This document shows, piece by piece, positions 2,460-62,205 of a stretch of 64,000 bases of DNA (positions are counted from its first letter, which is position 1; the number at the start of each line of letters is the position of its first letter). The position numbers were made by a program, and so were the translations under genes. The DNA is taken from the IMG/VR virus record IMGVR_UViG_3300031088_000759. The stretch is one strand, 5' to 3'. The stretch is from a virus. The notes beneath the pieces are model-generated. The model was not told where the DNA came from and ran no database searches. It worked only from the letters and a program-made list of their open reading frames with translations.

Positions 2460-2578
2460 ACCCGTTATAGGGATTGAACCTATATCTATCATGCGCAGGT
2501 TAATTACGCCTGCGATTCCCCTCAACGTAGTACTCCGCGTCAGGGACAAGATTGTGTTTCCCAATTACACTAAACGGC
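2460..2578 (-). ncRNA. tRNA-like RNA with a branched domain replacing the anticodon arm
   Basis: Acceptor, D and T arms present; two extra hairpins in the middle. Confidence 0.55.
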
Positions 2579-2591
2579 TAAAGCCTATTTA

Positions 2592-2719
2592 CAGCACTTC
2601 GGCATAGGCTAACCAAATAACGAATTGAATGATAAAATTCCTGATTGAATATAATATTACCATTCTCCTTGTGCTTATTCACTACTGAAACCATATTCCC
2701 ATCAGACCTAATTGGTTTC
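2592..2719 (-). ncRNA. Multi-pseudoknot RNA 3' of tRNA-Met, copy 1
   Basis: Diverged second copy at 18833-18957 with compensatory changes. Confidence 0.7.
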
Positions 2720-2723
2720 GTCG

Positions 2724-2800
2724 TAGCGGAGGCCGGATTCGAACCGACGAAATACAGGATTATGAGACCTGCGTGTTAGACCTAACTTCACCACTCCGCA
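2724..2800 (-). tRNA. tRNA-Met(CAU), initiator-like 1:72 mismatch
   Basis: Loop CTCATAA. Confidence 0.85.
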
Positions 2801-3266
2801 ATGATTTATTCTCCAAAACTATATCAGAAAACAAATATTTATTTAATTATTCAAAATTTTGAACAATATAAAAACTTACAAAAACCTTTTCGGCTCCTAA
2901 AAGATTAGTGCTTTCTTCTAGAGTACTTCAAATTCTCATCTTAGTACTCTAGAAGAAAGCACCATATGCCTTATTTTTGTCCTGGTTAGGCTTCCAGTTT
3001 GGATGACCCTTAGTACACATTGAACTTATAAAAATAAATTTAACTATTCATACAGTATTCAACTTCCCGCGAAACCCTCTGAGATTCCATCCTCAAAGGC
3101 ATCCACCAGGTTTATTCAACCAGTCCGTGCGTTGGGGTTGTGAACTACACGACAAAGGAACTAAAAATATATAAAATTATCAAACAACTATCAATCATCT
3201 TGCTTTACTTGAATATCTTAACACATTAAAAAAATTTTGTCAACTATTGAAATCAATAAACCTTTA

Positions 3267-5997: not shown

Positions 5998-7023
5998 TTA
6001 GGAGTTTCTTTTACGTCTTTTATGTTCAGGACACTTTTTTGAAATCCCATACCTTAATCTAATTCCACAATCAGAACAAACAGGATATGTCAAACAGACT
6101 TTTTCATGTCGTTTAATATTCATAGCTCCCATTAATTCATCGCAATGCTGACATTTTAGTTTTGTATTTATCATTGAATGTTCTTTACAAAATTTAACAC
6201 CTTTACGAGACAGTCTAACATTGCAAGTTTGACATTTAGGAAAACTTTCACAAGCTTTCTCATGTTGGTCTATAACAGAACTTTTAAACTCAACTTCACA
6301 AAAAGAACATTTTTTATACGAAGAAATTTTTGGAATTCTTTCTTTTTTAGCAACCGGAGTTCTTTTGCTATTTGCTAATTTTTGCGACTCTTTGACAGTG
6401 CGACGTGGAATCCCTAATCTTTTCATAATATTTAAAGCCTTAGTTCTACCAACACCTAATTTTTCAGCTAATTCTGGACGAGATAAACCCTGATTCCAAT
6501 AAAGATCGTAAATATAATCGTAGTTATATTCATTAGCAGATTTTTCTTTAACATACTCGGCTTGGCATTTACGTGAACAAAAAACTCTATTTTTAATTCT
6601 ATTATGAAAAACTTCATGACAGCCAGGGCAAATCAATTTTCTAAGCATATAGTTATTCTCAGAGGAAAGTTTTTGAAGATGAGTGTTTCTAATGTTATTA
6701 CGGGTTTCTTCTGAATGTTCCCACTTTTCGTTTAAAGACGGAATTTTCCCAAAATATTTAGGACTCATATTATTAAACCATTTGATTTCAAGAGTATTTA
6801 AAGTTTTATTATCATATTTACATTCTTCTAAAATACGAAATACAAGTAATTCAGGAATAGCACCATTAGCATGATACCACTCCACAAAATCTTTTCTTTT
6901 ATGTTTTTTACTTTTTAAGTCTTTCAAATGGTATTTCCAGCGCTGTTCAATGTTCTTTGACATACCAATATACAAGCACTCATCCGTCTTACTATCAAAA
7001 ATACCATAAATGCCAACAGTCAT
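5998..7023 (-). CDS. GIY-YIG homing endonuclease with NUMOD3/HTH/Cys-rich tail
   Basis: GIYGI..YIG..R..H..E; HSEETR; CxxC repeats. Confidence 0.85.
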   Translation of the reverse strand: MTVGIYGIFDSKTDECLYIGMSKNIEQRWKYHLKDLKSKKHKRKDFVEWYHANGAIPELLVFRILEECKYDNKTLNTLEIKWFNNMSPKYFGKIPSLNEKWEHSEETRNNIRNTHLQKLSSENNYMLRKLICPGCHEVFHNRIKNRVFCSRKCQAEYVKEKSANEYNYDYIYDLYWNQGLSRPELAEKLGVGRTKALNIMKRLGIPRRTVKESQKLANSKRTPVAKKERIPKISSYKKCSFCEVEFKSSVIDQHEKACESFPKCQTCNVRLSRKGVKFCKEHSMINTKLKCQHCDELMGAMNIKRHEKVCLTYPVCSDCGIRLRYGISKKCPEHKRRKRNS

Positions 7024-8694: not shown

Positions 8695-9429
8695 TTATTT
8701 TGTCAAGTCTTGTGCCATCACATGCGGACAACCATTCGCAAAAGTAGATTTATAAACAATTCTACCACAACTACAATAACCATTCTTCGTGCTATCACTA
8801 TTTTTAGTATTACCATACGTTTCTGTTTGTGTATGACAATTAGCACATAAAAACCTTAAATTTTCAAATCTATTGTCAGTGCTCTCACCATTAATATGAT
8901 CAACCTGCAGAGTTATACGTTTACCACGCCACTCAGCTTTTTCATGTAGAATACAATCAACCATTGAACAAACGTATTTTACACCTTTATCCAGCATACG
9001 GTTTCTTAAAGAAACGCCACTGTGTGAAGTATCAATAGCAAAAAATTCTTCATCAGACAATCTACGTATTTTTCCAATTCTTCTGTTTGAACTAACCGCA
9101 TCATATTTTGGTAATTCAATTTTATAAAGTTTAGACAAATAACGTATTTGTTTATATCTATAGTTTTGAATTTCTGAATAGCCCAGATTTCGAATTACTT
9201 CAACAATGCTATTCGAATTACTAACAGCTTCTTGAAATTCTTCTTTTGAAATCGAATTCTTAGGTTTTTCAAAAGAAATATTTAACTCTGATATATATTT
9301 AGCAAATGATAAAGTTGATCGTGACAAACCAAAACTCCTAGCAAAAGACTGCATGGAACTATATTGTTTACTCAACTCAATAAAATCATCTTTTGGTATC
9401 TGTTTCCAATCAGGATTTTTACTTGCCAT
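8695..9429 (-). CDS. HNH homing endonuclease
   Basis: LQVDHING..DNRFENLRFLCANCH. Confidence 0.9.
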   Translation of the reverse strand: MASKNPDWKQIPKDDFIELSKQYSSMQSFARSFGLSRSTLSFAKYISELNISFEKPKNSISKEEFQEAVSNSNSIVEVIRNLGYSEIQNYRYKQIRYLSKLYKIELPKYDAVSSNRRIGKIRRLSDEEFFAIDTSHSGVSLRNRMLDKGVKYVCSMVDCILHEKAEWRGKRITLQVDHINGESTDNRFENLRFLCANCHTQTETYGNTKNSDSTKNGYCSCGRIVYKSTFANGCPHVMAQDLTK

Positions 9430-9567
9430 TTTCTCTCCATTCAATAATTTACTATTAAAAGTATTTTATCAAATAAAATTATGAAATGACTATTTTTAAC
9501 GACTATATTATACAATAAATTAAAATATTTATTAATTTCAAAAACCAGCGCTGAACTGGTCTTATCG

Positions 9568-10739: not shown

Positions 10740-11318
10740 TCAACGAGGTTCTTTGTCGAAAAGTTCATACATCTCCTGAGCCTTATCATACGCATTATTA
10801 GCGCTAACTTTATGCGAAGCTTGAACAAAGAGTCCATCTTCATCTTCCAAATAAACAGAATATGATTTATCTTTGTCTTCCACAACTCTTACAGAATATT
10901 CTACTGGAATGTGCCCTGATTCATCCATATGTTCTGAAATTTTATTTCTTATATCTTCGTTAATTTTCGATGATTGCTTACCTAAAATCAAATCTTTTCC
11001 AACATCACCATAATCAAAATGTTTAATATGTTTTAATTGTTCAGCATCATCTTTGCTGTTATTCATCAACTGTTCGAACTCATACCCTTTTGGATGTTCA
11101 TAGATTGAAGAAGATAATTCCAGTGATTGTTTTGCTTTTTTGAAAGAAGCTATTTTGTCATACTTTTCAGAGAGAATTTTTTCATTTGCAGAATTTGCAT
11201 CATTAATATTGTCAAAATGGTTTTCTGATTTGCTGACAGGACATTTTTCAGAAGTTGTGGTACATCTTCCCACTTTATTTGAAAAATTGATGTGATAACT
11301 GCTTTTTTGCTTTGCCAT
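10740..11318 (-). CDS. HCCH-tag hypothetical protein
   Basis: YHINF..C..C..HF N-terminus. Confidence 0.8.
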   Translation of the reverse strand: MAKQKSSYHINFSNKVGRCTTTSEKCPVSKSENHFDNINDANSANEKILSEKYDKIASFKKAKQSLELSSSIYEHPKGYEFEQLMNNSKDDAEQLKHIKHFDYGDVGKDLILGKQSSKINEDIRNKISEHMDESGHIPVEYSVRVVEDKDKSYSVYLEDEDGLFVQASHKVSANNAYDKAQEMYELFDKEPR

Positions 11319-15933: not shown

Positions 15934-16009
15934 ATGTTTGACAAAATCAATTATTACATAAAATATAAATTTTGTCAAACTTTATACAACTTCTAGAATA
16001 CGAAACTCA

Positions 16010-16348
16010 TCACTTCATGATGTCTGACATCTTCACACGGTGCTCAACAATAAGCTCATCAGCCCTATGCTTAGTTCCAAAATCTCCCCAACCAGAATGA
16101 TTGAACATAACACGAACAGTAAGAGCACCATTAGCCTTCAGCTTAAAATTAGGAAAGACAAAGAAATACCCACCGAAATCCTGGTAATCCTTATCGTCAA
16201 TCAGACGAACATGATTCTCGAGATTCTTCTTTACCTTATTGATAAGAACATTCTTCTTTACCTTAATCTTCTTTGCCTCCGCAACAGTCATGTCATCCGA
16301 CACAACCAGTTTAGCAAGATTCTTCTCAAAGACTGCCTTGTTCATCAT
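16010..16348 (-). CDS. Hypothetical protein under a putative NAD+-II riboswitch
   Basis: ORF; start moved to 16348 on SD spacing. Confidence 0.75.
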   Translation of the reverse strand: MMNKAVFEKNLAKLVVSDDMTVAEAKKIKVKKNVLINKVKKNLENHVRLIDDKDYQDFGGYFFVFPNFKLKANGALTVRVMFNHSGWGDFGTKHRADELIVEHRVKMSDIMK

Positions 16349-16358
16349 TCTAACCATT

Positions 16359-16394
16359 CTCCTTGTTTTTTCTCCGGCGTAGGAATAACCCGGA
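16359..16394 (-). promoter_or_regulatory. Mini-NAD+-II-like riboswitch, copy 1
   Basis: TCCGG-GTT-ATTCCT-ACG-CCGGA-GAAAAAAC-AAGGAG; same motif precedes pnuC. Confidence 0.7.
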
Positions 16395-16484
16395 CTTTTT
16401 ATCTTTCTTGTTATGTTTTAATAATACCATAAAACATAAATTTTGTCAAACTTTTCAAAACTGTTCATTATAAACTTTTAAATC

Positions 16485-23254: not shown

Positions 23255-24020
23255 AGGTAATCAGACTGAGAATACATCTTCTTATCAGCAAACTTTTGTC
23301 AGATTATGGATTCCTGACGTTTCCACGATATCCCTACCGTATTTGCCATGCCTGGTAAGTTAAGCTCACCAATCTTTATGTTATACGCTACTCCACAGAT
23401 TTCAATTCGACAAACAGTTGCAAGCCATTCATCTGCATTACTTTCTTATGAACTTTACAAAACCTTGCGAGCTTCATAAAGACTTGATTCTCAAAGAGTC
23501 AAGCATTAAGGCACTTTCGCACATAACAGGAAAAGTCTTTCGCTTTTTACAATATACAGGAGTCGAACCTGTAACGCATCGTTTTGAGACGATTGTTCTG
23601 CCATTGAACTAATATTGGGAATAATGACTGGAGATGTGCTTTTCCATGAAGCTTCGCAACCTTTGGGATTACAAAATACTTCACACCTCTCCCGCTTTCA
23701 TTGTCACACTACTCACAGTCAAAGCTTTATAATGAATTCGCCAATCCATTAATAAACTTTATAGTATCCGCCTTTGATTGACAGTCTCAGACTAAAATAC
23801 CTTCCTACAAGAAGTTTCTGTTTATTGTAACCCACTCATCTACCCTGCGTGGATAGCTTTCTTTACACCGATTGGCTCTGAGAAAGATGTGGCAACTCAC
23901 AAAAACCGTATCCAGTTCCACCTGAATACTTAACTCATAGAAATTGTATGATTTACCTTTTATCAAGGCGATAGATTGTCACACTACCTTTCACTAACTT
24001 ACGCTAGCTTATGCGTCATA
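23255..24020 (-). ncRNA. Probable GOLLD RNA with an embedded tRNA-like element
   Basis: About 770 nt structured tract with no credible ORF in a tRNA array; AAAAGCGAAAGAC..CGAAAG..CGCAAG..TGTATTCTCAG resemble my recollection of the GOLLD 3' domain. Confidence 0.6.
23549..23618 (-). pseudogene. Trp-like tRNA with a 6-nt loop (CTCAAA)
   Basis: D and T arms intact; lies inside the GOLLD candidate. Confidence 0.55.
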
Positions 24021-26614: not shown

Positions 26615-27397
26615 CTAAACAAAGCTCCCCGAATAACACTCTCTGGAACAATATTTTCTTTTTTGTGCTGGGACACTGTTAAAGGTTCTTTTACACTTTA
26701 AACATACTGTGTAATTTTTAATACTGGAAAATCTGTCAATAGAAGATTCTTGTATCTTTTTCAAACTTTCCTTATTGTGCTTTTTCCCTTTGAAACCTGT
26801 ATTAGTCAAAGCAAAGCCTTCATGTTTTAAAAATGCTGTTACTTTACGTTTACTCAATCCCAGTTCTTTCGATATTGTTCTTGCAGATTTATTTTCATTA
26901 ATAAACTTTTTAATAATTATTTTTTTATATTTCTTCTCAAACTCTTTCTTTTGTGATTCTAAACTACATTCTAAACACATAGAAGAATCTATTTTTGTGG
27001 TAAATTGAGATCCACAGACACAACTCTTTGTGATTCTCTTTCCACCTTTATATAAAGAATTTGCAATTTTAATTTTAGTTTCTTCTGAATGCTTCCATTT
27101 TTCATTTAAAGAAGGCTTCTTACCATAGTATTTAGGACTCATCTTATTAAACCATTTGATTTCTAAAACATTCAAAATACCATTATCGTATTCGCATTCT
27201 TCCAATACACGAAGAACAATCAAATCAGGAACAGCACCATTAGAATGATACCACTCAACAAAATCTTTGCGCTTATGACTCTTAGATTTTAATTCTTTTA
27301 AATGTGATTTCCAGCGCTGTTCAATATTCTTTGACAAGCCAACATATAAACACTCATTATTATGAGCATCAAAAATACCATATATTCCTACTGTCAT
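26615..27397 (-). CDS. GIY-YIG homing endonuclease with NUMOD3; catalytic domain close to 5998-7023
   Basis: MTVGIYGIFD..YVG..; HSEETKIKI. Confidence 0.85.
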   Translation of the reverse strand: MTVGIYGIFDAHNNECLYVGLSKNIEQRWKSHLKELKSKSHKRKDFVEWYHSNGAVPDLIVLRVLEECEYDNGILNVLEIKWFNKMSPKYYGKKPSLNEKWKHSEETKIKIANSLYKGGKRITKSCVCGSQFTTKIDSSMCLECSLESQKKEFEKKYKKIIIKKFINENKSARTISKELGLSKRKVTAFLKHEGFALTNTGFKGKKHNKESLKKIQESSIDRFSSIKNYTVCLKCKRTFNSVPAQKRKYCSRECYSGSFV

Positions 27398-27504
27398 ATT
27401 TTGCTCTTTTCGCTGGTTAAATACTTGTTTCTTACTATGTATCTTACCAATAAAAAAATATTTTTGACAGTTTTTACTAAGAATTTTCAATCATTCTTAG
27501 CAAG

Positions 27505-37182: not shown

Positions 37183-39306
37183 TCAATTAACAAAATTTTT
37201 TGTAAATTCCTCAGCAGACATGAATTCAATGCCTAAACTTACAGCTTTCTTTACTTTGGATGAAGATCCATTTTTGTCAGCAATCATATAAGAAGTTGAT
37301 GCTTTTGGTGATGAATGAAATTCTCCACCTTGTGATTCTACAAAATCAACCCAATCATTACGCTTAGCAAAAGGTGAAGGAACTACTCCACTGATAGCAA
37401 ACGACAGATTGTTCAAAGAAGATGAATTATTCACAATTTCATTATTCTTGTCTTCGTTGTGTTCATTGCTTTTGAACAACACTCCAGCTTCACGCATACG
37501 CTGAATCATGGGAATACGTGAAGTTAATCCTTTAATAGTGTTCTCAGCTAAAATTTCACCCATTCCATCAATTGCCGCAACTTCATCAATTGACGCTTTA
37601 AGAATGTTGTCTAATGAACTGAATTCATGTATAAGCTTCTTTGATACAAGACGGCCAACTTTGGGGATTCCAAATGAAGCAATAATCACCTCAGCAGGAA
37701 GGTTCTTAGCTTTCTCTAAATATTCAAGAATGTTTTTTGTACGCTTCTGTCCGAAAACAATATCTTCTCCTTTAGAAGAGACTCCTACAACAGTATTAGC
37801 CAAAGAGTTTTCGTCAAGGTAGAACAAATCAGAAATGTCATTGACAATACCTACTTTATGAAGAGAATCTAATGTTGATGCACTAAGTCCTTTGATGTTC
37901 AAATAATCGCTACCTACTGCAAACACTAATGATTCAAAATTACGAGCAGGGCATAATTCATTCTCACAGGATAAAGTTTTAGGAGGATATGAATCATTCT
38001 TGTCAAAGTATAGAACAGAACCACATGAAGGACAGTTTTTAGGGACTTCTACACTTCGTGAATCTTCTGGACTGCTGATAACAGAAACAATCTGCGGAAT
38101 AATTTCATTGGCTTTTTCTACAATAACAATTGACCCTGGTCTCACATCTTTTTCTGAAACTAGAGAAAAGTTGTGCAATGAAGCTCGTGAAACTTTAGAA
38201 TTGTCCAGCATAACAGTGTCAAACAAAGCCACGGGGGTAACTCGTCCTGACTTGCCAACAGTGTTAATAATTTCGGTAATTTTTGTTTCTACCTTCTCAG
38301 AGGGGTATTTCCAAGCAATTTGAGAAGAAGGGTGATGTGAAGTGTTTCCCATTGTTTTGTGTAGAGCAACTTCATCAACAGGTTTAATCACTACTCCATC
38401 AATAGGGAAATCGAAAGAATGGGATAACTTACCAAAGCTCTCAATGGCTTGATGAATTTCTTCGTTATTTGCAAAATTAGATAGCTTACATGATTTAGAG
38501 TCAATTTTATTTACAGTATCTAAAGTAAGTTTATCTACTGTAATAAAGTTGTCATGAACATCAATGTGAGACAGTGACATAATACTGTTCTCATTCCATA
38601 CAGAATACGCTGCAAACGTCATTTCAGCTTTGTATTTCATGCCTTTTTTAGAACGGTTGATAATTCCAAAAGTAGCATTCCTAGACACTTCGAATTTAGT
38701 TTCATCAAATTCAAAACGATTTTTGTTTGTCTGTTCAAATTGTTCATCAAACATAAAGATTTCACCGCGTACTTCAATGTATTCCGAAGAATTAATTGTT
38801 GTTGGAAGACCTTTAACTATAATGTTTTTATCTTTAACCAAATGCGTAATATTCTTGCCAATAGTGCCAGAACCACGTGTTGCTAGAAACGTAAGATTGC
38901 CTTTGTTATATATAGCAGAAGCTGCGATGCCATCTAGTTTTGCTTGTAGTCTAAAATCTTTAGCTCCATAACCACGAACTTTTTTCAAATAACTATCTAA
39001 CTGCTCAGGCTTCTTGGCCTTTGCTAGTGAAAGCATAGGAGATTTATGAACAACATCTTCGCCATCCATTTCGTCCATTTCTGCACCTAACAGAACATCA
39101 CCTTCAAGAATTTTGAATCCATCTGTACCCGGAGCAAATAATTCAGGAAAATCCTCACTGTGGATTTGAAGAAAATCTTGTTTAGCATCAAATTCTTCAT
39201 CACTTAAAAAAGAATCTTCGTCAGCAAGATAATATAGCCGGGATGCTTCTTTAAGCTCTTCAATAACTTGTTTAACTTCTTCTGTGGATACAATAACTTT
39301 ACTCAT
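37183..39306 (-). CDS. ligA: NAD-dependent DNA ligase
   Basis: KLDG, EVRGE, DGVVIK, Zn finger, HhH, BRCT. Confidence 0.95.
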   Translation of the reverse strand: MSKVIVSTEEVKQVIEELKEASRLYYLADEDSFLSDEEFDAKQDFLQIHSEDFPELFAPGTDGFKILEGDVLLGAEMDEMDGEDVVHKSPMLSLAKAKKPEQLDSYLKKVRGYGAKDFRLQAKLDGIAASAIYNKGNLTFLATRGSGTIGKNITHLVKDKNIIVKGLPTTINSSEYIEVRGEIFMFDEQFEQTNKNRFEFDETKFEVSRNATFGIINRSKKGMKYKAEMTFAAYSVWNENSIMSLSHIDVHDNFITVDKLTLDTVNKIDSKSCKLSNFANNEEIHQAIESFGKLSHSFDFPIDGVVIKPVDEVALHKTMGNTSHHPSSQIAWKYPSEKVETKITEIINTVGKSGRVTPVALFDTVMLDNSKVSRASLHNFSLVSEKDVRPGSIVIVEKANEIIPQIVSVISSPEDSRSVEVPKNCPSCGSVLYFDKNDSYPPKTLSCENELCPARNFESLVFAVGSDYLNIKGLSASTLDSLHKVGIVNDISDLFYLDENSLANTVVGVSSKGEDIVFGQKRTKNILEYLEKAKNLPAEVIIASFGIPKVGRLVSKKLIHEFSSLDNILKASIDEVAAIDGMGEILAENTIKGLTSRIPMIQRMREAGVLFKSNEHNEDKNNEIVNNSSSLNNLSFAISGVVPSPFAKRNDWVDFVESQGGEFHSSPKASTSYMIADKNGSSSKVKKAVSLGIEFMSAEEFTKNFVN

Positions 39307-40429: not shown

Positions 40430-41678
40430 TTGAATTCTCCCCATAGCGTAGAGCAAGGGGATTCTGATCTCAAACAGCCTGCGCCAGCGAACCAGCAACA
40501 GGTCTTACATTCTCAACAATCAAAGGGTTAAAACCAGCCCTATTTAAAATATTACACGCAGCATTATAATCACGATCAATACACACACCACACGATTCAC
40601 AAACAAACACTCTTACAGATAGTTCAATACGGTTCTTGGCTCTCAAACCGCACTTAGAACAATCCATAGTAGTGTATTTTGGCGGAACCAACACCACCCT
40701 ACGCCCCACCAACAGGCTCTTTTCATATAAAACTCGTTTCACCAAACCAACAGCATTATCACCAGCAGATCTCGCCATTTTCGATTGAAACAAAAACTTA
40801 GACTTAAAATCTTCCACAGCAATCTGATCAAACTCATTCACAATTTTAAAAGCCCACTTATGCGCTAAATCCTTCCTCTGGTTAGCTACTTTCTTATGTA
40901 ATCTCGCAACACGCTTCTTTGATTGAGCACGATGATTACTACCTTTTTTACGACGCGCTAATTCTCTCTGCGCTCTTGCTAACTGAGCTTGCGCTCTTCT
41001 CGAAAACTTTGGTTGTTCAAGATTAAAATCACTACTCGTAGTAGTAGCGATAGTTTTAACTCCCCAATCAATACCAATGCTCTTATTAGTTTTAGGTAAA
41101 TCATCTTTATCCACACTCACAACGAATGAGGCATACCAATGACCGATACTATCTTGATATACGCGCACGCTGGTTGGTGGAGAGGGTAGCTTTCTTGACC
41201 AAACCACAGGAATAATATGCCCACCAGCAATTTTCAAACGAGTTTTTATTTCACCAGTTATTAAATCGACTTGATCAATAAGGCTGAAACCACGCTGTGT
41301 GTAATTCACGCTTGGTAATGATTTATGTCGAGATTTGAACTTCTTTTTACCTTTAGATTGTTTGAAGTCTCTTAATGATTGTTGTTGGCTGACTACGCTG
41401 CCTTGTTTTAGCCAATCATGTTTTTGTCGGAGTTTTGTGATGGTTTTATCATTCATCCATGTTTGATTGGTTTTTAGTTCTGCTACTGCTTGGTTGTAGA
41501 TGTATCGGGCGTTATCGTTTTCCTGAATGAGCCTCTTCACAGCTTGTTGTCCAGGTCTTATTCGATAGGTGTAGCGTAGTTTGTTTGTCATAATGTTTAT
41601 TTTATCAAGATTATTTTAAAAGTTGTGTTGTTTTCTTCCTCTTAGCTGAAGCAAGGGGTATGTCAACAACAAAAACTG
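40430..41678 (-). mobile_element. IS200/IS605-family (IS1341-like, tnpB-only) element
   Basis: Subterminal hairpins, ATCAC target, TTCAA right end, no target duplication. Confidence 0.9.
40470..41591 (-). CDS. tnpB: RNA-guided nuclease TnpB
   Basis: GIDWG, VED, Zn finger, DRDYNAA; RuvC D-E-D intact. Confidence 0.95.
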   Translation of the reverse strand: MTNKLRYTYRIRPGQQAVKRLIQENDNARYIYNQAVAELKTNQTWMNDKTITKLRQKHDWLKQGSVVSQQQSLRDFKQSKGKKKFKSRHKSLPSVNYTQRGFSLIDQVDLITGEIKTRLKIAGGHIIPVVWSRKLPSPPTSVRVYQDSIGHWYASFVVSVDKDDLPKTNKSIGIDWGVKTIATTTSSDFNLEQPKFSRRAQAQLARAQRELARRKKGSNHRAQSKKRVARLHKKVANQRKDLAHKWAFKIVNEFDQIAVEDFKSKFLFQSKMARSAGDNAVGLVKRVLYEKSLLVGRRVVLVPPKYTTMDCSKCGLRAKNRIELSVRVFVCESCGVCIDRDYNAACNILNRAGFNPLIVENVRPVAGSLAQAV

Positions 41679-42071: not shown

Positions 42072-42641
42072 TCAGACACGGTGCTGTCGAGAGTACTCGC
42101 TCATGATACACGAAGCAGCCTGAGCAATATTGAGGGATCTGACGCTACCTACCTGATTGATGAAAACCATGTCATCACACAGTTCAATCTCCTCAGGCTG
42201 AAGACCCCGCTGCTCTTCTCCATACACAAAAGCACTCTTCTCCGGGAAATCTACATCCCAGATGTTCTTAGGCTTGTATGAATCAATATTATCAACAGCA
42301 TACACAGTGTAGCCGTCAGCATGAAGAGTCTCAATGACTTCAGCAAGATTGTCAGCACTCTTCACATGCTCATACTGATGAGTTCCCACAGTCCCAATAC
42401 GGTTATAGTGACGACGCCCCACAAGATACACCTCAGAGCCAAGGAACGCATTGTTAGCACGAATGACAGAAGCCTTGTTGAAGTCCTTAGTAAGGTTCAT
42501 GCAAATGTTCACAAGACCAGTACGACGAGTATCCAGATCAGCCCGAATCTCTTCCATGGTCCAATTCTTGTACATTTCAGCAACATTTGCATTCGCACTA
42601 TTTGCGTTCTCAAGATTAACGTTATAAGGCAGGATAGCCAT
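42072..42641 (-). CDS. SpoU/TrmH-family RNA 2'-O-methyltransferase
   Basis: N.ASVIR, GEEQRGL, SLNIAQAA. Confidence 0.85.
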   Translation of the reverse strand: MAILPYNVNLENANSANANVAEMYKNWTMEEIRADLDTRRTGLVNICMNLTKDFNKASVIRANNAFLGSEVYLVGRRHYNRIGTVGTHQYEHVKSADNLAEVIETLHADGYTVYAVDNIDSYKPKNIWDVDFPEKSAFVYGEEQRGLQPEEIELCDDMVFINQVGSVRSLNIAQAASCIMSEYSRQHRV

Positions 42642-51719: not shown

Positions 51720-52877
51720 TTACGCTTTAGTAGCACAAGTCTTCCCTATGTTTCCTCCGTTTTTCAGTTTAGAACCACAGCGAATACAAAAACCACTACC
51801 ATACACAGTGTTTATTTCTGGTTCAGGGTAAGTGTCAAGAATGTTGTTAGTATCTACTTTTGGTTTATTAACTTGTGTAGTCATTATTCCCAGTTGAGTA
51901 AACATTTGTAAATCTTTGTCTCGATCATCAATTGCTTGAACGATGATTAATCCTTCTTTTTGGAGCTTCTTTACAGTGTCTCTTTTATGCTCACTGCTTG
52001 GTCTATTATCTCCTTCTCGTTTCATTATTAACTGAGAAATTTTCGCACCACTTTTATCTAATGCTTGGATAAGTTCAGAAGCGTAGTCATCACTTCTTCC
52101 AGTTACAGCAACAATAGTTAAATTATCATTATCTCTCATGGAATTTACGAGGTTAAGAACCTTCTTATTTACAGGTGCTTTGACTATATTTTGATAAAAG
52201 CTTCTGAAATCTTTTTTCTTTCCGGGTGTTCCTAAGTATCGTGCAGCATCAGCTTCATTATTGAACAAAGTTCCATCCATATCAAGAATAACTACTGCTT
52301 TTCCTTTTGGTGGGTTTTCGGCTATTTGTCTGTTGTTGAATTCTTTGATTTTTTTCATTCCAACAGTTGTTTTTTCTACTGCAAAAACGGAACCATTGTC
52401 AGCTATGATGAAGTCTTTTAGATGCCCTTCTTTATCATAAGCGTTTTGAGCCATGGAATCAATTACTTCATCAGGGACTCTTCTTCCGCCAGCGTCACCA
52501 CGTGCTTTATTTCTGCGTTTACATTCGTCTACAGGAACATCTACATGTACTTGTTCAATCTCAGCATTATACTTACGTGCTAGATCTACAAGTGGCTTGA
52601 CTCGCCTCGGGTTAAGGTTTGTGTCATCTACAATAACAGTTTTTCCCTCACGAAGAGACTTTTTGATAATCTCTTGTTGAACGTGTGAAACGTTGTTTTC
52701 TACATCTTTACGAGGAGATCCTTTATGGTATTTTTCTCCTTCGGGAGCAAGAATAGTTCTAAGGTCATCACGATTCGCACGAACAATATTCTGAGGATCA
52801 TCTTCTAACATTTTTAAAGCCTGAGTTGTTTTGCCACTTCCAGGCAAGCCGTGAGTAATAACTACTTTTCCTGACAT
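51720..52877 (-). CDS. pseT: Polynucleotide kinase/phosphatase (T4 PseT-like)
   Basis: GLPGSGKT, RDDLR, DDTN; HAD motif DMDGT, TGR, DDR. Confidence 0.9.
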   Translation of the reverse strand: MSGKVVITHGLPGSGKTTQALKMLEDDPQNIVRANRDDLRTILAPEGEKYHKGSPRKDVENNVSHVQQEIIKKSLREGKTVIVDDTNLNPRRVKPLVDLARKYNAEIEQVHVDVPVDECKRRNKARGDAGGRRVPDEVIDSMAQNAYDKEGHLKDFIIADNGSVFAVEKTTVGMKKIKEFNNRQIAENPPKGKAVVILDMDGTLFNNEADAARYLGTPGKKKDFRSFYQNIVKAPVNKKVLNLVNSMRDNDNLTIVAVTGRSDDYASELIQALDKSGAKISQLIMKREGDNRPSSEHKRDTVKKLQKEGLIIVQAIDDRDKDLQMFTQLGIMTTQVNKPKVDTNNILDTYPEPEINTVYGSGFCIRCGSKLKNGGNIGKTCATKA

Positions 52878-52924: not shown

Positions 52925-53296
52925 TTAAAAAGCATTTAAGATTTTTCTCATTTTTCGAACTCTTGTTTTCTCAGGCTCATTAATCGGATAAATCATATGG
53001 TCATGTTTTTTAATAAAATCTTGTTCAAGGTTTTTATGTTTTTGTTTTTGTTTAAAAGCTTTTAAATCAGCAATAGCTTTTTCTTTTCCTGTTAGCTCTT
53101 TTGATTGAGCTGCTTTTCTCGCTGATAGAGATTTTTTTGTAGCTGAAACAATATGTCCATTCTCTTCAAACATTCTTTTTTCGTAAAATCTTTGAGCATC
53201 AGAAATATTGTCAAAGTGAGATACAGGTTTACCATATTTACAAGTTCCTATTGTTGCTGTACATGGTTTAGGACCATCTGGTGTTATATGATACAT
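52925..53296 (-). CDS. HCCH-tag hypothetical protein
   Basis: YHITP..C..C..HF. Confidence 0.8.
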   Translation of the reverse strand: MYHITPDGPKPCTATIGTCKYGKPVSHFDNISDAQRFYEKRMFEENGHIVSATKKSLSARKAAQSKELTGKEKAIADLKAFKQKQKHKNLEQDFIKKHDHMIYPINEPEKTRVRKMRKILNAF

Positions 53297-56949: not shown

Positions 56950-57984
56950 TCATGTTCTTGCGAAATTTCTCAATGAAAATGTTTTAGCTTCAAAGCGCAT
57001 TTTAATATCTTTGCTAATCCAATGACTCTTTTTATCAACGCTACCAGGTGGCACAAGTATATATTCTTGATTGAATTCTTCAAGTAGATCAATCCAAAAC
57101 TTTAAAGAGGATTCTCGCTTATTACCGCCGTATCTCAAAGGATCTTTTACCAAAGGAATATTGTCAGGCAAAAGATAATATACATCAGCTTCAAAATTTA
57201 AAGCATCCTTAACTAATTGTTCTGGAACAGGTTCATTCATAATACGATAATAGCCTATTGTGCTAAACAAATCTGTGTCAAAGACCAACGCCGGATGCGA
57301 AGCTTTATAAGAAAATAAATTTTGAAGAGAATTCTGTCCCAAATGAATGTGGTTCATTTTCTTCATAGACAATTCAGCTCCAACTTCTTCAAGATAAGGC
57401 CGAGCATATTCAACAATCCAAGGAATGTTTAAAATGCTGCTCACTTCGCAAGAAAGCGTAGTTTTACCTACTGATTCTTGACCAAACATTACAGCTTTGA
57501 ACAGTAGTTTTCTTTGTATTAAAGGTAGAATATTGTCCCAGTTGTTCCATATGTCTTCTCTTACAGAAGTGCTTTTAGTTTTATTATGGAATCTAGATAT
57601 GTCATAAGGGATGAAGTCAGCTTCCAGGGATTCAGCAACACTTTTACCATAAGACTCAGAAGCAACAACATAATCCCATTTCTCAACATTAGGGAAATTT
57701 TTATTAATTTCATTTCGCCACCATTCCCAAAAACCAACTTTCATATCAGAAGGGTTTTGAGGAGCATCATCATTAGTAGAGTACTTTATCTGAACATTAT
57801 CAAAACTTTTTATCGAATATTCTTTTAATGCCTCAACTCTTAAATAGCCTTCTAGTGGTTCGAACGTTCTGCTATTAACAAGAACATGAACTTGTGTATC
57901 AGCGAAATTTTTAGCAAAATTTATCAGATCAGCATGACCCGTAGTAGGTAAAAGAGCTGTCATAAGAATAATAGTATTTTTCAT
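56950..57984 (-). CDS. nadR: NadR-like NMN adenylyltransferase/nicotinamide riboside kinase
   Basis: PTTGH, SESYG, GQESVGKTT, EYARPY, DTD, DPLR. Confidence 0.9.
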   Translation of the reverse strand: MKNTIILMTALLPTTGHADLINFAKNFADTQVHVLVNSRTFEPLEGYLRVEALKEYSIKSFDNVQIKYSTNDDAPQNPSDMKVGFWEWWRNEINKNFPNVEKWDYVVASESYGKSVAESLEADFIPYDISRFHNKTKSTSVREDIWNNWDNILPLIQRKLLFKAVMFGQESVGKTTLSCEVSSILNIPWIVEYARPYLEEVGAELSMKKMNHIHLGQNSLQNLFSYKASHPALVFDTDLFSTIGYYRIMNEPVPEQLVKDALNFEADVYYLLPDNIPLVKDPLRYGGNKRESSLKFWIDLLEEFNQEYILVPPGSVDKKSHWISKDIKMRFEAKTFSLRNFART

Positions 57985-58697
57985 AGTTTGCCTTCTCCTT
58001 CAAAAGGTGTTCCTGCTACAGAGGTAGCAATATTCACTGTTTCAACTTCTTGCGGATTTTGATTCATGGTTTTTCGCCATTGAAAATAAGCAAAGATAGC
58101 GTTGAACAAAAACAGCATGAATTGAGCGGCTAGAAGATACAATCCGCTTTCAAAATACACATAGACAGAAACAATATTAACTAAGACCCATACAATCCAA
58201 GTTTCAATCTTTTTGCGATCTAACAGGAATTGAGCAAGAACTGTTCCGACTAAGAGCCACCCGTCAAGAGCAACCATATTGCCACCAAAGCTTGTAATGA
58301 TGAAGTAAGCACCAGTCCATGTCAATGCTGTGAAAAATATGTAAAGAACAATTTTCTTAGGCTGAACATGTTGAACAGGTTTAGGGTTAGTGTCTCTCCC
58401 CCACATAAACCAACCTATAATGACAGTAGGAATAAGGTATATGTTAAGAGCCATGGACCCATATAATCCAGCTTGGTAAAAAGTAATAACCAATAAAGTT
58501 GTAGAAACAACCCCTAAAACATAGTTAAATCTAACTTGTCTAGTGCAAAGCCATGTGCATGCAAAAGAAAAGAAAACAGAAGCAGTCTCAATCCAATTTA
58601 TTTTTTCATTCATCAGTGTCATTGCTAAGAGCAAAACGCCTGTAATAGCAAAAGCAATAATAAAAGACTCTAAAATATAGCGTTTAGTAAGTATCAT
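57981..58697 (-). CDS. pnuC: Nicotinamide riboside transporter PnuC
   Basis: Multi-TM, AQFLLDRKKIETW.VW..VN. Confidence 0.9.
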   Translation of the reverse strand: MILTKRYILESFIIAFAITGVLLLAMTLMNEKINWIETASVFFSFACTWLCTRQVRFNYVLGVVSTTLLVITFYQAGLYGSMALNIYLIPTVIIGWFMWGRDTNPKPVQHVQPKKIVLYIFFTALTWTGAYFIITSFGGNMVALDGWLLVGTVLAQFLLDRKKIETWIVWVLVNIVSVYVYFESGLYLLAAQFMLFLFNAIFAYFQWRKTMNQNPQEVETVNIATSVAGTPFEGEGKL

Positions 58698-58703
58698 TTT
58701 TTT

Positions 58704-58739
58704 CTCCTTGTTCTTCAACCGGCGTAAGAGCAACCCGGT
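58704..58739 (-). promoter_or_regulatory. Mini-NAD+-II-like riboswitch, copy 2, on the pnuC SD
   Basis: ACCGG-GTT-GCTCTT-ACG-CCGGT-TGAAGAAC-AAGGAG. Confidence 0.75.
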
Positions 58740-59525: not shown

Positions 59526-60275
59526 TTAATTTGCTAAAATTTCTTTAAAACTAGACACTGTGCTCTCTGTGGTGTCTCTAAGAGCTGCAACAGAAACCAT
59601 TTTATTCCTCACAACTTCTACTTTTTCAATTTCGCCATTTTTCTTATTCAAATATTCCACAGTTTGTTCAAATGGCTTTCGAACGATGAGCCTACCATTA
59701 AAAAATGTTTCAGGAAGTTTTTCAAATTCTGTTCCAATAAGAAGTTCAGTTCTTTTACTAGTAGAAACATTCAACAGTTCTTTGTGGCTGAATAAACTTT
59801 CAGCTGCCATAGTGATAGCGTTCTTTCTAGCGTCCAGTCTCCTCCAGTCCATGTACTCTTGAACTTCTTCTAAGTCTTGAAGCCGAAAAATTCTCGCATC
59901 AAAGACAGGGATTCCTTGACAGTTTGGTTCGGATTTAAGAAACGCACCTGTTGCTAGCGAAGCAGAAGTAGAAAGAATTTTTTCAATTTTGCCATCAAAA
60001 AGAAATTGATTCTTAGGTCCCCATTTATCTGTAAAGAAAATTGTAATCTCATCAGATTGAACGTAGCCAAACATAGCACCCGTAATAAGGTTATTCATCA
60101 AACTAATAGCAGTTTGATCCATAGTATTCATAAAACCTTCGTCAAAAGGGCGATTGTACTGTTTAGTAAAAGTGTGAAAAGATTTACCATCCAGACGAAT
60201 TCCAATTATAGATTGAGCTGGTAGCCTGCTTCTGAAGTCTGATTCAAGACTTTTAAACTTTTCATTCATCTTCAT
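59526..60275 (-). CDS. thg1: tRNA(His) guanylyltransferase/Thg1-like protein
   Basis: RLDGKSFHTFT, QSDE, FDGKIEK, FDAR, WRRLDA. Confidence 0.9.
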   Translation of the reverse strand: MKMNEKFKSLESDFRSRLPAQSIIGIRLDGKSFHTFTKQYNRPFDEGFMNTMDQTAISLMNNLITGAMFGYVQSDEITIFFTDKWGPKNQFLFDGKIEKILSTSASLATGAFLKSEPNCQGIPVFDARIFRLQDLEEVQEYMDWRRLDARKNAITMAAESLFSHKELLNVSTSKRTELLIGTEFEKLPETFFNGRLIVRKPFEQTVEYLNKKNGEIEKVEVVRNKMVSVAALRDTTESTVSSFKEILAN

Positions 60276-61200: not shown

Positions 61201-62205
61201 TCAGCTTCTTGCATCAAACCTAGTTCCTCTTTTGTCATGTTTAGCTCTAGTTTGTGCTCTTCTTTCAGAAGCTTTAATTTTTGCTTCTTTTCTCATTTCT
61301 TGAAATTCTTCTTTTGTTGGCATTTTCTGTAAGCTACGAACAGTGTTATAAACTTGGTTCTCATAAGATACGCTAACATAGTAATTTTCAAGAGCGTTAT
61401 AATAATTATTCTCTTGCTCCAAGAAATCATGATCTTCTGCTAAATCAGACTCGGATAATGATTTTTTCTTATCATTAAGCAATTTGTTCAGTTTTCGTCT
61501 TTCAGTTTCATATTCTTTATGAGATGTCTGGCTTTCAGTTGCTATTTCTACACGATTATAAAAACCACGGTTGAAATAATCTATCTGACTGTTAGAGTCA
61601 TCATAATTATAAGCATCATGGAGATTGGACACTCTTTCTGACAATTGCTTATATTCAGGCTTTAACTGAATACTATAAAAGTTTGGATCATATTCATGTG
61701 TTTCAGATATATCTCCCGCACCATATACAACAGTGTTAATAAATGAACCACCAGAATAATTATCTACGGTAACACTATATTTAAATCCATTAGGCAAGTA
61801 TCCACCAACAGTTGCTTCTTTTAAATCTTGACGAATTTTTTTCGCAATTTCACGGGTAGGTACATATTTGTTATCTTCAGATAGTTTAGAACCTACCCAA
61901 GCGTTTCCTCCATAACCTCCATCTTTTACAGCAATTCGAGAAGGTTCTTTATAATTGCTCGGTTTACTATTCATAATCTCAAGGTTTTTAGTTGGTGATT
62001 CTTTTTGAGGATTTTTAGTGCCACTTTTTAGAACTCTACTAGTTTCACCATATTGTTGTTGCATGCTTTTTTCAGCATAGTTTCTTGCTTCTTCTTTGTT
62101 ATTAAAGTGAGGTGGTTCTTGCCCATCAACAGCAAAGTCGCACTTAATTTTTGCTTTACAGATGTTAGGTCTACCTGATTCTGGGTTAACATGATATCTT
62201 GTCAT
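61201..62205 (-). CDS. HCCH-tag protein with an LPD29-like domain
   Basis: IAKKIRQDLK..KYSV..YSGGS..YNYDDS...DYF. Confidence 0.75.
   Translation of the reverse strand: MTRYHVNPESGRPNICKAKIKCDFAVDGQEPPHFNNKEEARNYAEKSMQQQYGETSRVLKSGTKNPQKESPTKNLEIMNSKPSNYKEPSRIAVKDGGYGGNAWVGSKLSEDNKYVPTREIAKKIRQDLKEATVGGYLPNGFKYSVTVDNYSGGSFINTVVYGAGDISETHEYDPNFYSIQLKPEYKQLSERVSNLHDAYNYDDSNSQIDYFNRGFYNRVEIATESQTSHKEYETERRKLNKLLNDKKKSLSESDLAEDHDFLEQENNYYNALENYYVSVSYENQVYNTVRSLQKMPTKEEFQEMRKEAKIKASERRAQTRAKHDKRGTRFDARS

Follow-up and report, generated by a model that had tools for sequence, protein, structure and literature searches.

A 36-nt RNA leader, likely a miniature variant of the NAD+-II riboswitch, overlaps the SD of a 112-aa orphan gene in a very large, tRNA-rich phage. 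The reading preferred here, at a probability of roughly 0.6, is that the leader is an NAD/NMN-sensing switch and that the orphan protein contributes to how the virus responds to a shortage of NAD. As judged from sequence, the leader is real and conserved, and it is highly probable that it is a riboswitch for nicotinamide nucleotides, whatever its exact specificity. On the same grounds it marks out a small regulon in the phage, orphan genes included; a multi-gene regulon with orphans is new here. The DNA analysed is a 64,000-nt stretch of a viral record, termed the window. The database copy of the 112-aa protein sits on a contig of 727,572 bp, and motif scans of the phage's own genome covered the 64 of 727 kb that form the window.

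The leader and promoter of the orphan gene

The features of the orphan gene and its leader are as follows, with leader numbering mapped on PMC10085692.

16421..16449 (-): sigma-70-type promoter of the orphan gene; TTGACA, 17 nt, TATTAT, extended TG; 11/12 matches
16359..16394 (-): P1a-less NAD+-II-like riboswitch candidate, copy A; 36 nt, pseudoknot-type, overlapping the SD of the 112-aa gene
16394-16390 pairing with 16377-16373 (-): P1 of copy A
16389-16387 (-): GUU
16385-16381 (-): anti-SD
16380-16378 (-): ACG
16371-16366 (-): A-tract, followed by C at 16365
16364-16359 (-): SD
16010..16348 (-): orphan gene; 112 aa, basic, pI 9.7, predicted to form two helices and a three-stranded sheet

An earlier note on this DNA, made from the letters alone, had described the motif, its promoter and a match in the pnuC leader about 42 kb away, and these descriptions hold. 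The motif is present letter for letter at 16394-16359 (-). The second copy is 42.3 kb distant, and the compensatory change claimed in P1 is found in the outer pair, which is U-A in copy A and A-U in the pnuC copy. Five pairs are possible between the anti-SD and AGGAG. TTGACA-17-TATTAT lies at 16449-16421, with 11/12 consensus matches and the extended TG. In a promoter scan 8 sites were found vs 5.3 in shuffles, and the promoter case therefore rests on the score of the site and not on the count. Since the 11/12 promoter ends 27 nt upstream of the leader, the orphan gene looks like its own transcription unit. A 19-nt stretch in the -35 region is identical at 16436-16454 and 15965-15983 (-), one copy before the orphan gene and the other before the next tRNA, which suggests that the orphan cassette arrived with a duplication of the promoter.

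A pattern of stem, GTT and ACG occurs twice in the window, at 16374-16393 and 58719-58738, and 0 times in 100 shuffles; a looser descriptor returns the same two copies (shuffle mean 0.36, maximum 4). With a covariance model the two copies, both members of its training set, score 64 and 68 bits, and the rest of the window stays at or below 12.4 bits. Eleven open reading frames in the window are led by AAGGAG, and only two of these, the orphan gene and pnuC, have an upstream GTN..ACG element. No riboswitch match in the window was returned by Rfam at the gathering score.

The reading frame gives 112 aa from the ATG at 16348, 10 nt past the SD, or 115 aa from an in-frame ATG at 16357, 1 nt past the SD; the database entry (P0002) has the 112-aa form. 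An in-frame ATG placed 1 nt past the SD and ahead of a usable start is also seen at another copy of the leader, L120 (2536 region). This extra ATG may be noise or a part of the switch.

The pnuC copy and the NARP3-type gene pair

Copy B leads a pair of genes for NAD salvage.

58704..58739 (-): riboswitch candidate, copy B, covering the pnuC ribosome-binding site
57981..58697 (-): pnuC, nicotinamide riboside transporter; ATG 6 nt past the SD; PF04973 E 5.9e-44; TIGR01528 above cut-off
56950..57984 (-): nadR-like NMN adenylyltransferase / NR kinase; PF13521; TIGR01526 E 7e-26, under its cut-off; no HTH apparent

The two genes overlap by 4 nt and form a NARP3-type pair; the nadR-like gene has matches in 335 phage records. 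NARP3 is described as a pair of PnuC-like and NadR-like proteins that restores NAD+ against Sir2-HerA (PMC13464706). The adjacent PnuC-like and NadR-like genes of the window encode the same two components. However, the pair in the window sits under an RNA leader common to a distant orphan gene; in the main text of PMC13464706 the word riboswitch occurs 0 times, and the phages described there are those of Enterobacteriaceae. In the cultured phages Cece and vB_OspM_OC, both with pnuC and nadR, no covariance-model match to the leader was found.

Eight copies and the genes behind them

Eight distinct copies of the leader are found on 5 contigs, 5 of them before NAD-salvage genes and 3 before orphan genes of two families.

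Copy B: pnuC-nadR, window
L012: pncB directly behind the leader, 345-kb phage
L122: pncB-nadE and an ORF that we take to be pncA-like
L115: PRTase, presumably nadV-type, 3' of a prs-like gene, 5.5-kb contig
L120: 44-aa ORF, 98-aa ORF, then pncB
Copy A (window), L001 and L003: stand-alone orphan genes

The commonest target is thus pncB, in 3/8 copies. Matches were kept where P1 had at least 4 pairs and was accompanied by an anti-SD, an A-rich tail and a start codon. In viral contigs a CGG/CCG pattern gave 13 matches, of which 3 were kept, and a loose pattern gave 87 matches, of which the same 3 were kept; of the 15 matches in metagenomes 5 were kept, including 2 that repeat the DNA of L001 and L003. 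The copy at L003 was found in the record of L001 with a pattern free of any P1 term. L012, L115, L120 and L122 were found with patterns that fix the P1 core, GT, ACG and the SD end, and in some scans two loop pyrimidines as well; invariance at those positions in these four copies is no evidence, since they were selected by the search pattern. Three borderline metagenome candidates (L114, L119, L124) were dropped for a weak P1, a weak anti-SD or a GC-rich tail.

Several wider scans were negative. The strict two-copy pattern had 0 matches in viral contigs, and blastn of the leader against GenBank phages gave none. A scan with a Streptococcus-like four-A tail gave at least 120 matches in the 27 of 64 parts covered, and among the matches listed none had a good P1 and a start codon. 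In GTDB genomes none of 9 matches combined P1, anti-SD, A-rich tail and start codon, as judged by eye, in a scan that used the CGG/CCG stem only and so is no proof of absence in bacteria.

The second orphan family is represented by P0013 (L003 1542-1976, +), an acidic protein of 144 aa with a C-terminal coiled coil, as seen by eye, and 2 homologs; this family was not found in the window. At L120 the 44-aa and 98-aa ORFs lie between the leader and pncB at 2545-2978 (+), and the 98-aa ORF is without a match in Pfam or NCBIfam. A similar-looking coiled-coil gene lies upstream in both L120 and L012.

A homolog with the same leader

A protein-based scan of viral contigs confirmed one locus among 193 candidates, L001, whose protein is 55% identical to the orphan protein of the window. 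This homolog was found via the protein search and not via the motif. The earlier note had set against its own reading the case that homologs of the gene never carry the motif. That case does not apply, since L001, the one locus covered among the 23 other aligned family members, keeps the motif over its SD. Its neighbour genes are other than those of the window, and no tRNA lies within 10 kb on either side. Between the window and L001, identity is 29/36 nt in the motif, 208/341 nt in the gene, 28/52 in the upstream flank and 21/53 in the downstream flank.

The homolog belongs to a 681-kb phage: the L001 and L003 loci are 100% identical to a contig of 681,631 bp. The L001 record itself (G001, 309 kb) is listed by IMG/VR as a complete provirus, and the 681,631-bp contig carries more genes of the same kind; G001 may be a fragment cut from a single giant phage. 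Runs X4 and X5, both from one study, have 40 nt of the leader with 1 difference and other flanks, before another reading frame, at a depth <5. Run X7 has 41 nt of the leader unchanged with a different upstream flank, again at a depth <5.

The mobility of the leader has to be weighed here. It is possible, if rather improbable, that the riboswitch is real and the orphan gene a passenger, with leaders shuffled or homogenised, or small genes dropping in behind them, and a protein unrelated to NAD. At L120 two small ORFs stand between leader and pncB, and at L012 pncB is directly behind it; the near twin of the promoter 470 nt downstream of that of the orphan gene suggests the insertion of a cassette. 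The leader also precedes unrelated orphans, namely P0013, the 44-aa ORF and another frame in X4 and X5, and the leaders group partly by genome and not by gene. Between the L001 leader and that of the pncB operon in the same genome there are 3 nt of difference, against 7 nt between L001 and copy A, and the leader nearest to copy B is that of the L003 orphan, at 5 nt. Leaders that do not track genes would fit independent recruitment or gene conversion, and also casual shuffling. However, in two phages that share only 208/341 nt of the gene the motif at the SD is still intact and compensated, with the gene a stand-alone unit among other neighbours in each. Decay would be the expectation for a neutral leader.

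The earlier note had proposed a phage regulon that senses NAD collapse and induces salvage together with the orphan protein. Its tie to NAD metabolism stands, with salvage genes behind 5/8 copies and an orphan homolog that keeps the motif. The 112-aa family is probably linked in function to NAD status; the anti-defence role suggested for the protein is doubtful.

RNA structure and comparison with NAD+-II

In an automatic alignment of the 8 copies, in which the L003 row is off by one at the left, 93% of cells pair vs 39-55% in slid controls. Of 500 shuffles, 22 reach the covariation score, which by the warning that comes with the tool is modest support. Counted by hand, P1 comprises 4-7 pairs; C-G stands at position 4 in six copies and U-A in two, and position 5 is A-U in three, U-A in two, G-C in one and unpaired in two. 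The pseudoknot on the SD pairs in 31/32 cells, also by hand. Folding without the pseudoknot leaves the SD 0.84-0.98 unpaired, and at -3.1 to -6.5 kcal/mol the anti-SD forms a weak duplex. The modelled folds fit a default-ON switch that is shut by ligand, because the SD is open without the pseudoknot and the anti-SD duplex is weak.

In the solved NAD+-II structure the nicotinamide lies on the G33:C46 pair, with C5:G34:A45 as the floor below and the G6:C32:A47:U7 quartet above, and each of the changes G33A, C46U and C5U blocks complex formation (PMC10085692). The pocket is described in the same way in PMC9841397, where G33 and C46 mutants abolish binding. The phage leaders share the order of elements: P1, GUU, anti-SD, ACG, the P1 3' strand, A-tract, C-A and SD. 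Counterparts of G6, U7, A31, C32, G33, C46 and A47 are found in 8/8 copies, though partly fixed by the search pattern in four. The carboxamide-reading pair G33:C46 corresponds to G16378 and C16365 in copy A and is kept in 8/8 (pattern-fixed in four), and the bases for a G6:U7:C32:A47 quartet appear in 8/8. The known riboswitch, too, leads pnuC; NAD uptake or salvage genes are behind 5/8 copies, and by analogy translational OFF control would be expected.

There are also departures. P1a is missing in 8/8 copies. The pocket floor is G-C in 8/8, in contrast to C5:G34 in Streptococcus. Two A's follow C46 instead of four, G15 is absent and U8 is replaced by A in 3/8 copies. The U8:A50:A31:G15 quartet thus cannot form as solved. 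In part of the text of PMC7749635 the NAD+-II motif is reported only from Streptococcus, whereas the present leader is in a phage, in several copies per genome, and before pncB, nadV-type and orphan genes. Since it lacks P1a and has the pocket-floor pair reversed, the leader is best described, as far as its anatomy and gene context go, as NAD+-II-like and not a strict member, i.e., a variant. The earlier designation as an NAD+-II-like riboswitch is accordingly kept for the pocket bases, P1, the pseudoknot on the SD and the NAD genes behind 5/8 copies, and is not borne out for P1a, the floor and the second quartet.

Natural 'mini-NAD+-II' riboswitches have reportedly been described by the Breaker laboratory, and the phage leader may be an ordinary member of that group. 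Engineered aptamers that lack P1a are also compact H-type pseudoknots, as are the phage copies. They bind NMN (18 uM with the best linker) and NAD+ much less well (PMC9841397); unlike the phage leaders, they retain C5:G34 and G15. A two-strand form without P1a is reported to assemble only with NMN (PMC10085692).

These differences bear on the identity of the ligand. The fold could be NAD+-II-like and read another or narrower ligand, such as NaMN, nicotinamide or an ADP-ribose-type defence by-product, through the altered pocket floor. The G-C floor of 8/8 copies is that of preQ1-I scaffolds, the commonest target, pncB, makes NaMN, and deletion of P1a costs the engineered constructs much of their affinity for NAD+ (PMC9841397). 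This reading is nonetheless improbable: G33:C46, which reads the carboxamide, is intact in 8/8 copies, and among the targets are NR, nicotinamide and nicotinate routes, in keeping with a common end product.

A short, repeated element that overlaps an SD might also be the site of a translational repressor protein, e.g., NadR or the basic orphan protein itself (pI 9.3-9.8 in the orphan family), and not a metabolite aptamer. However, its unpaired bases agree one by one with those of the NAD+-II ligand pocket, and the 345-kb record (G002) has the motif, yet scans of the viral collection for the orphan family gave only G001; a repressor site is very improbable. A preQ1-I riboswitch would suit a phage with about 50 tRNAs, and it has the same H-type pseudoknot layout, G-C floor and A-rich tail over the SD, with copy A within the tRNA region, but preQ1-I requires a cytosine specificity base before the P1 3' strand and U6 (PMC11625349), both of these are G in 8/8 copies, no copy precedes a recognisable que gene and the homolog locus is without tRNA genes within 10 kb on each side, so that preQ1 is an unlikely ligand and this last alternative is scarcely credible.

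The orphan protein family

The earlier note had recognised no family for the 112-aa protein, and this assessment is borne out by searches of Pfam, of PDB by profile and of GenBank phages (queried with 4 family members), all of which were without a match. ESM Atlas features gave no usable match, and PHROGs gave only a weak one, phrog_3972 (E 0.004, 4/14). In a metagenome scan for the orphan gene 0/593 candidates were confirmed. No name for the family was found in the sources searched, and the searches brought up nothing in family, structure or sequence that connects the protein with NAD or with known anti-defence proteins.

Relatives comprise 4 close clusters, 8 more distant ones (10 matches less 1 already known and 1 by chance) and 19 matches by profile. 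P0020 was excluded from the family as a low-complexity chance match. The family alignment has 24 sequences of 97-122 aa and 21-82% identity, with near-duplicate cluster members left out. T21, L35 and G74 are invariant in all 24, and a GWGDF-type loop is present in 19/24; the other 5 have lost it. Four members were measured, and all are basic (pI 9.3-9.8). Structure prediction gives a confident alpha/beta model.

Tad1, Tad2 and DSAD1 are small phage anti-defence proteins that act against NADase systems and have no catalytic signature. The orphan protein is alike in size (about 100-125 aa) and in showing no catalytic signature; no sequence or profile match to them was found. To our knowledge, none of the three is riboswitch-controlled.

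The virus and other genes of the window

The window has 51 tRNA matches and a GOLLD RNA by Rfam. The GOLLD RNA (23263-23691, -; 230.9 bits) is within the 51-tRNA array and overlaps a tRNA match at 23548-23618. Because NAD-dependent DNA ligase, NucS, PASTA and NlpC/G5 genes are present, the host would appear to be Gram-positive and probably actinobacterial. The phage's own NAD-dependent DNA ligase (37183-39306, -) is an NAD consumer and NMN producer, and is without the motif.

Other genes of the window, all on the (-) strand, include a set for tRNA repair and modification: PNKP-like (51720-52877), Thg1 (59526-60275) and SpoU methylase (42072-42641). There are also a TnpB-like gene and genes for two GIY-YIG and one HNH endonuclease (40470-41591, 5998-7023, 26615-27490 and 8695-9444), the last three among tRNAs. 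Unrelated proteins at 52925-53296, 61201-62205 and 10740-11318 (-) have a common N-terminal YH...C...C motif. The same start is found in L001, L120 and L122, with no Pfam match for those scanned; by eye, L122 shares the cysteine-bearing N-terminal repeat of the phage family. At L001 2359-3390 (-) and L120 37-885 (+) an ADP-ribosyltransferase-like C-terminal signature, seen by eye, is joined to the phage's repeated N-terminal motif, with no Pfam match.

Proposed mechanism and implications

By analogy with the solved NAD+-II RNA, P1 would form with the A-tract in its minor groove, and the nicotinamide ring would lie on the G(16378):C(16365) pair beneath a G-U-C-A quartet. Ligand binding would lock a pseudoknot of 4-5 bp on GGAG, and without ligand the SD would stay open. 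Should the NAD/NMN-sensing reading hold, the orphan protein might bind and inhibit a host NAD-degrading or defence enzyme, though this step is more doubtful than the switch itself. A broader proposal is that miniature NAD riboswitches serve giant phages of Gram-positive hosts as an alarm for NADase immunity, in which a collapse of NAD+/NMN would lead to translation of salvage enzymes and at least two new counter-defence families; this is unlikely. An NMN-preferring aptamer could report plain salvage supply, with no link to immunity.

Riboswitches are described as rare in phages, with glutamine and psbA cases given (PMC9004378), and no title or abstract opening on a phage NAD riboswitch was found in the literature covered, to which subscription journals did not belong. 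NARP3, as a known phage pathway that rebuilds NAD, is described in the main text of PMC13464706 without RNA-level control. A multi-copy NAD switch in a phage, if true, would mean that the virus reads the NAD state of its host directly. The regulation ties small orphan genes to NAD biology and so provides a short list of candidates for counter-defence or NAD handling, and both the 36-nt RNA and the 112-aa protein are easy to test. If the alarm proposal is true, the motif could also be used to mine new anti-defence genes.
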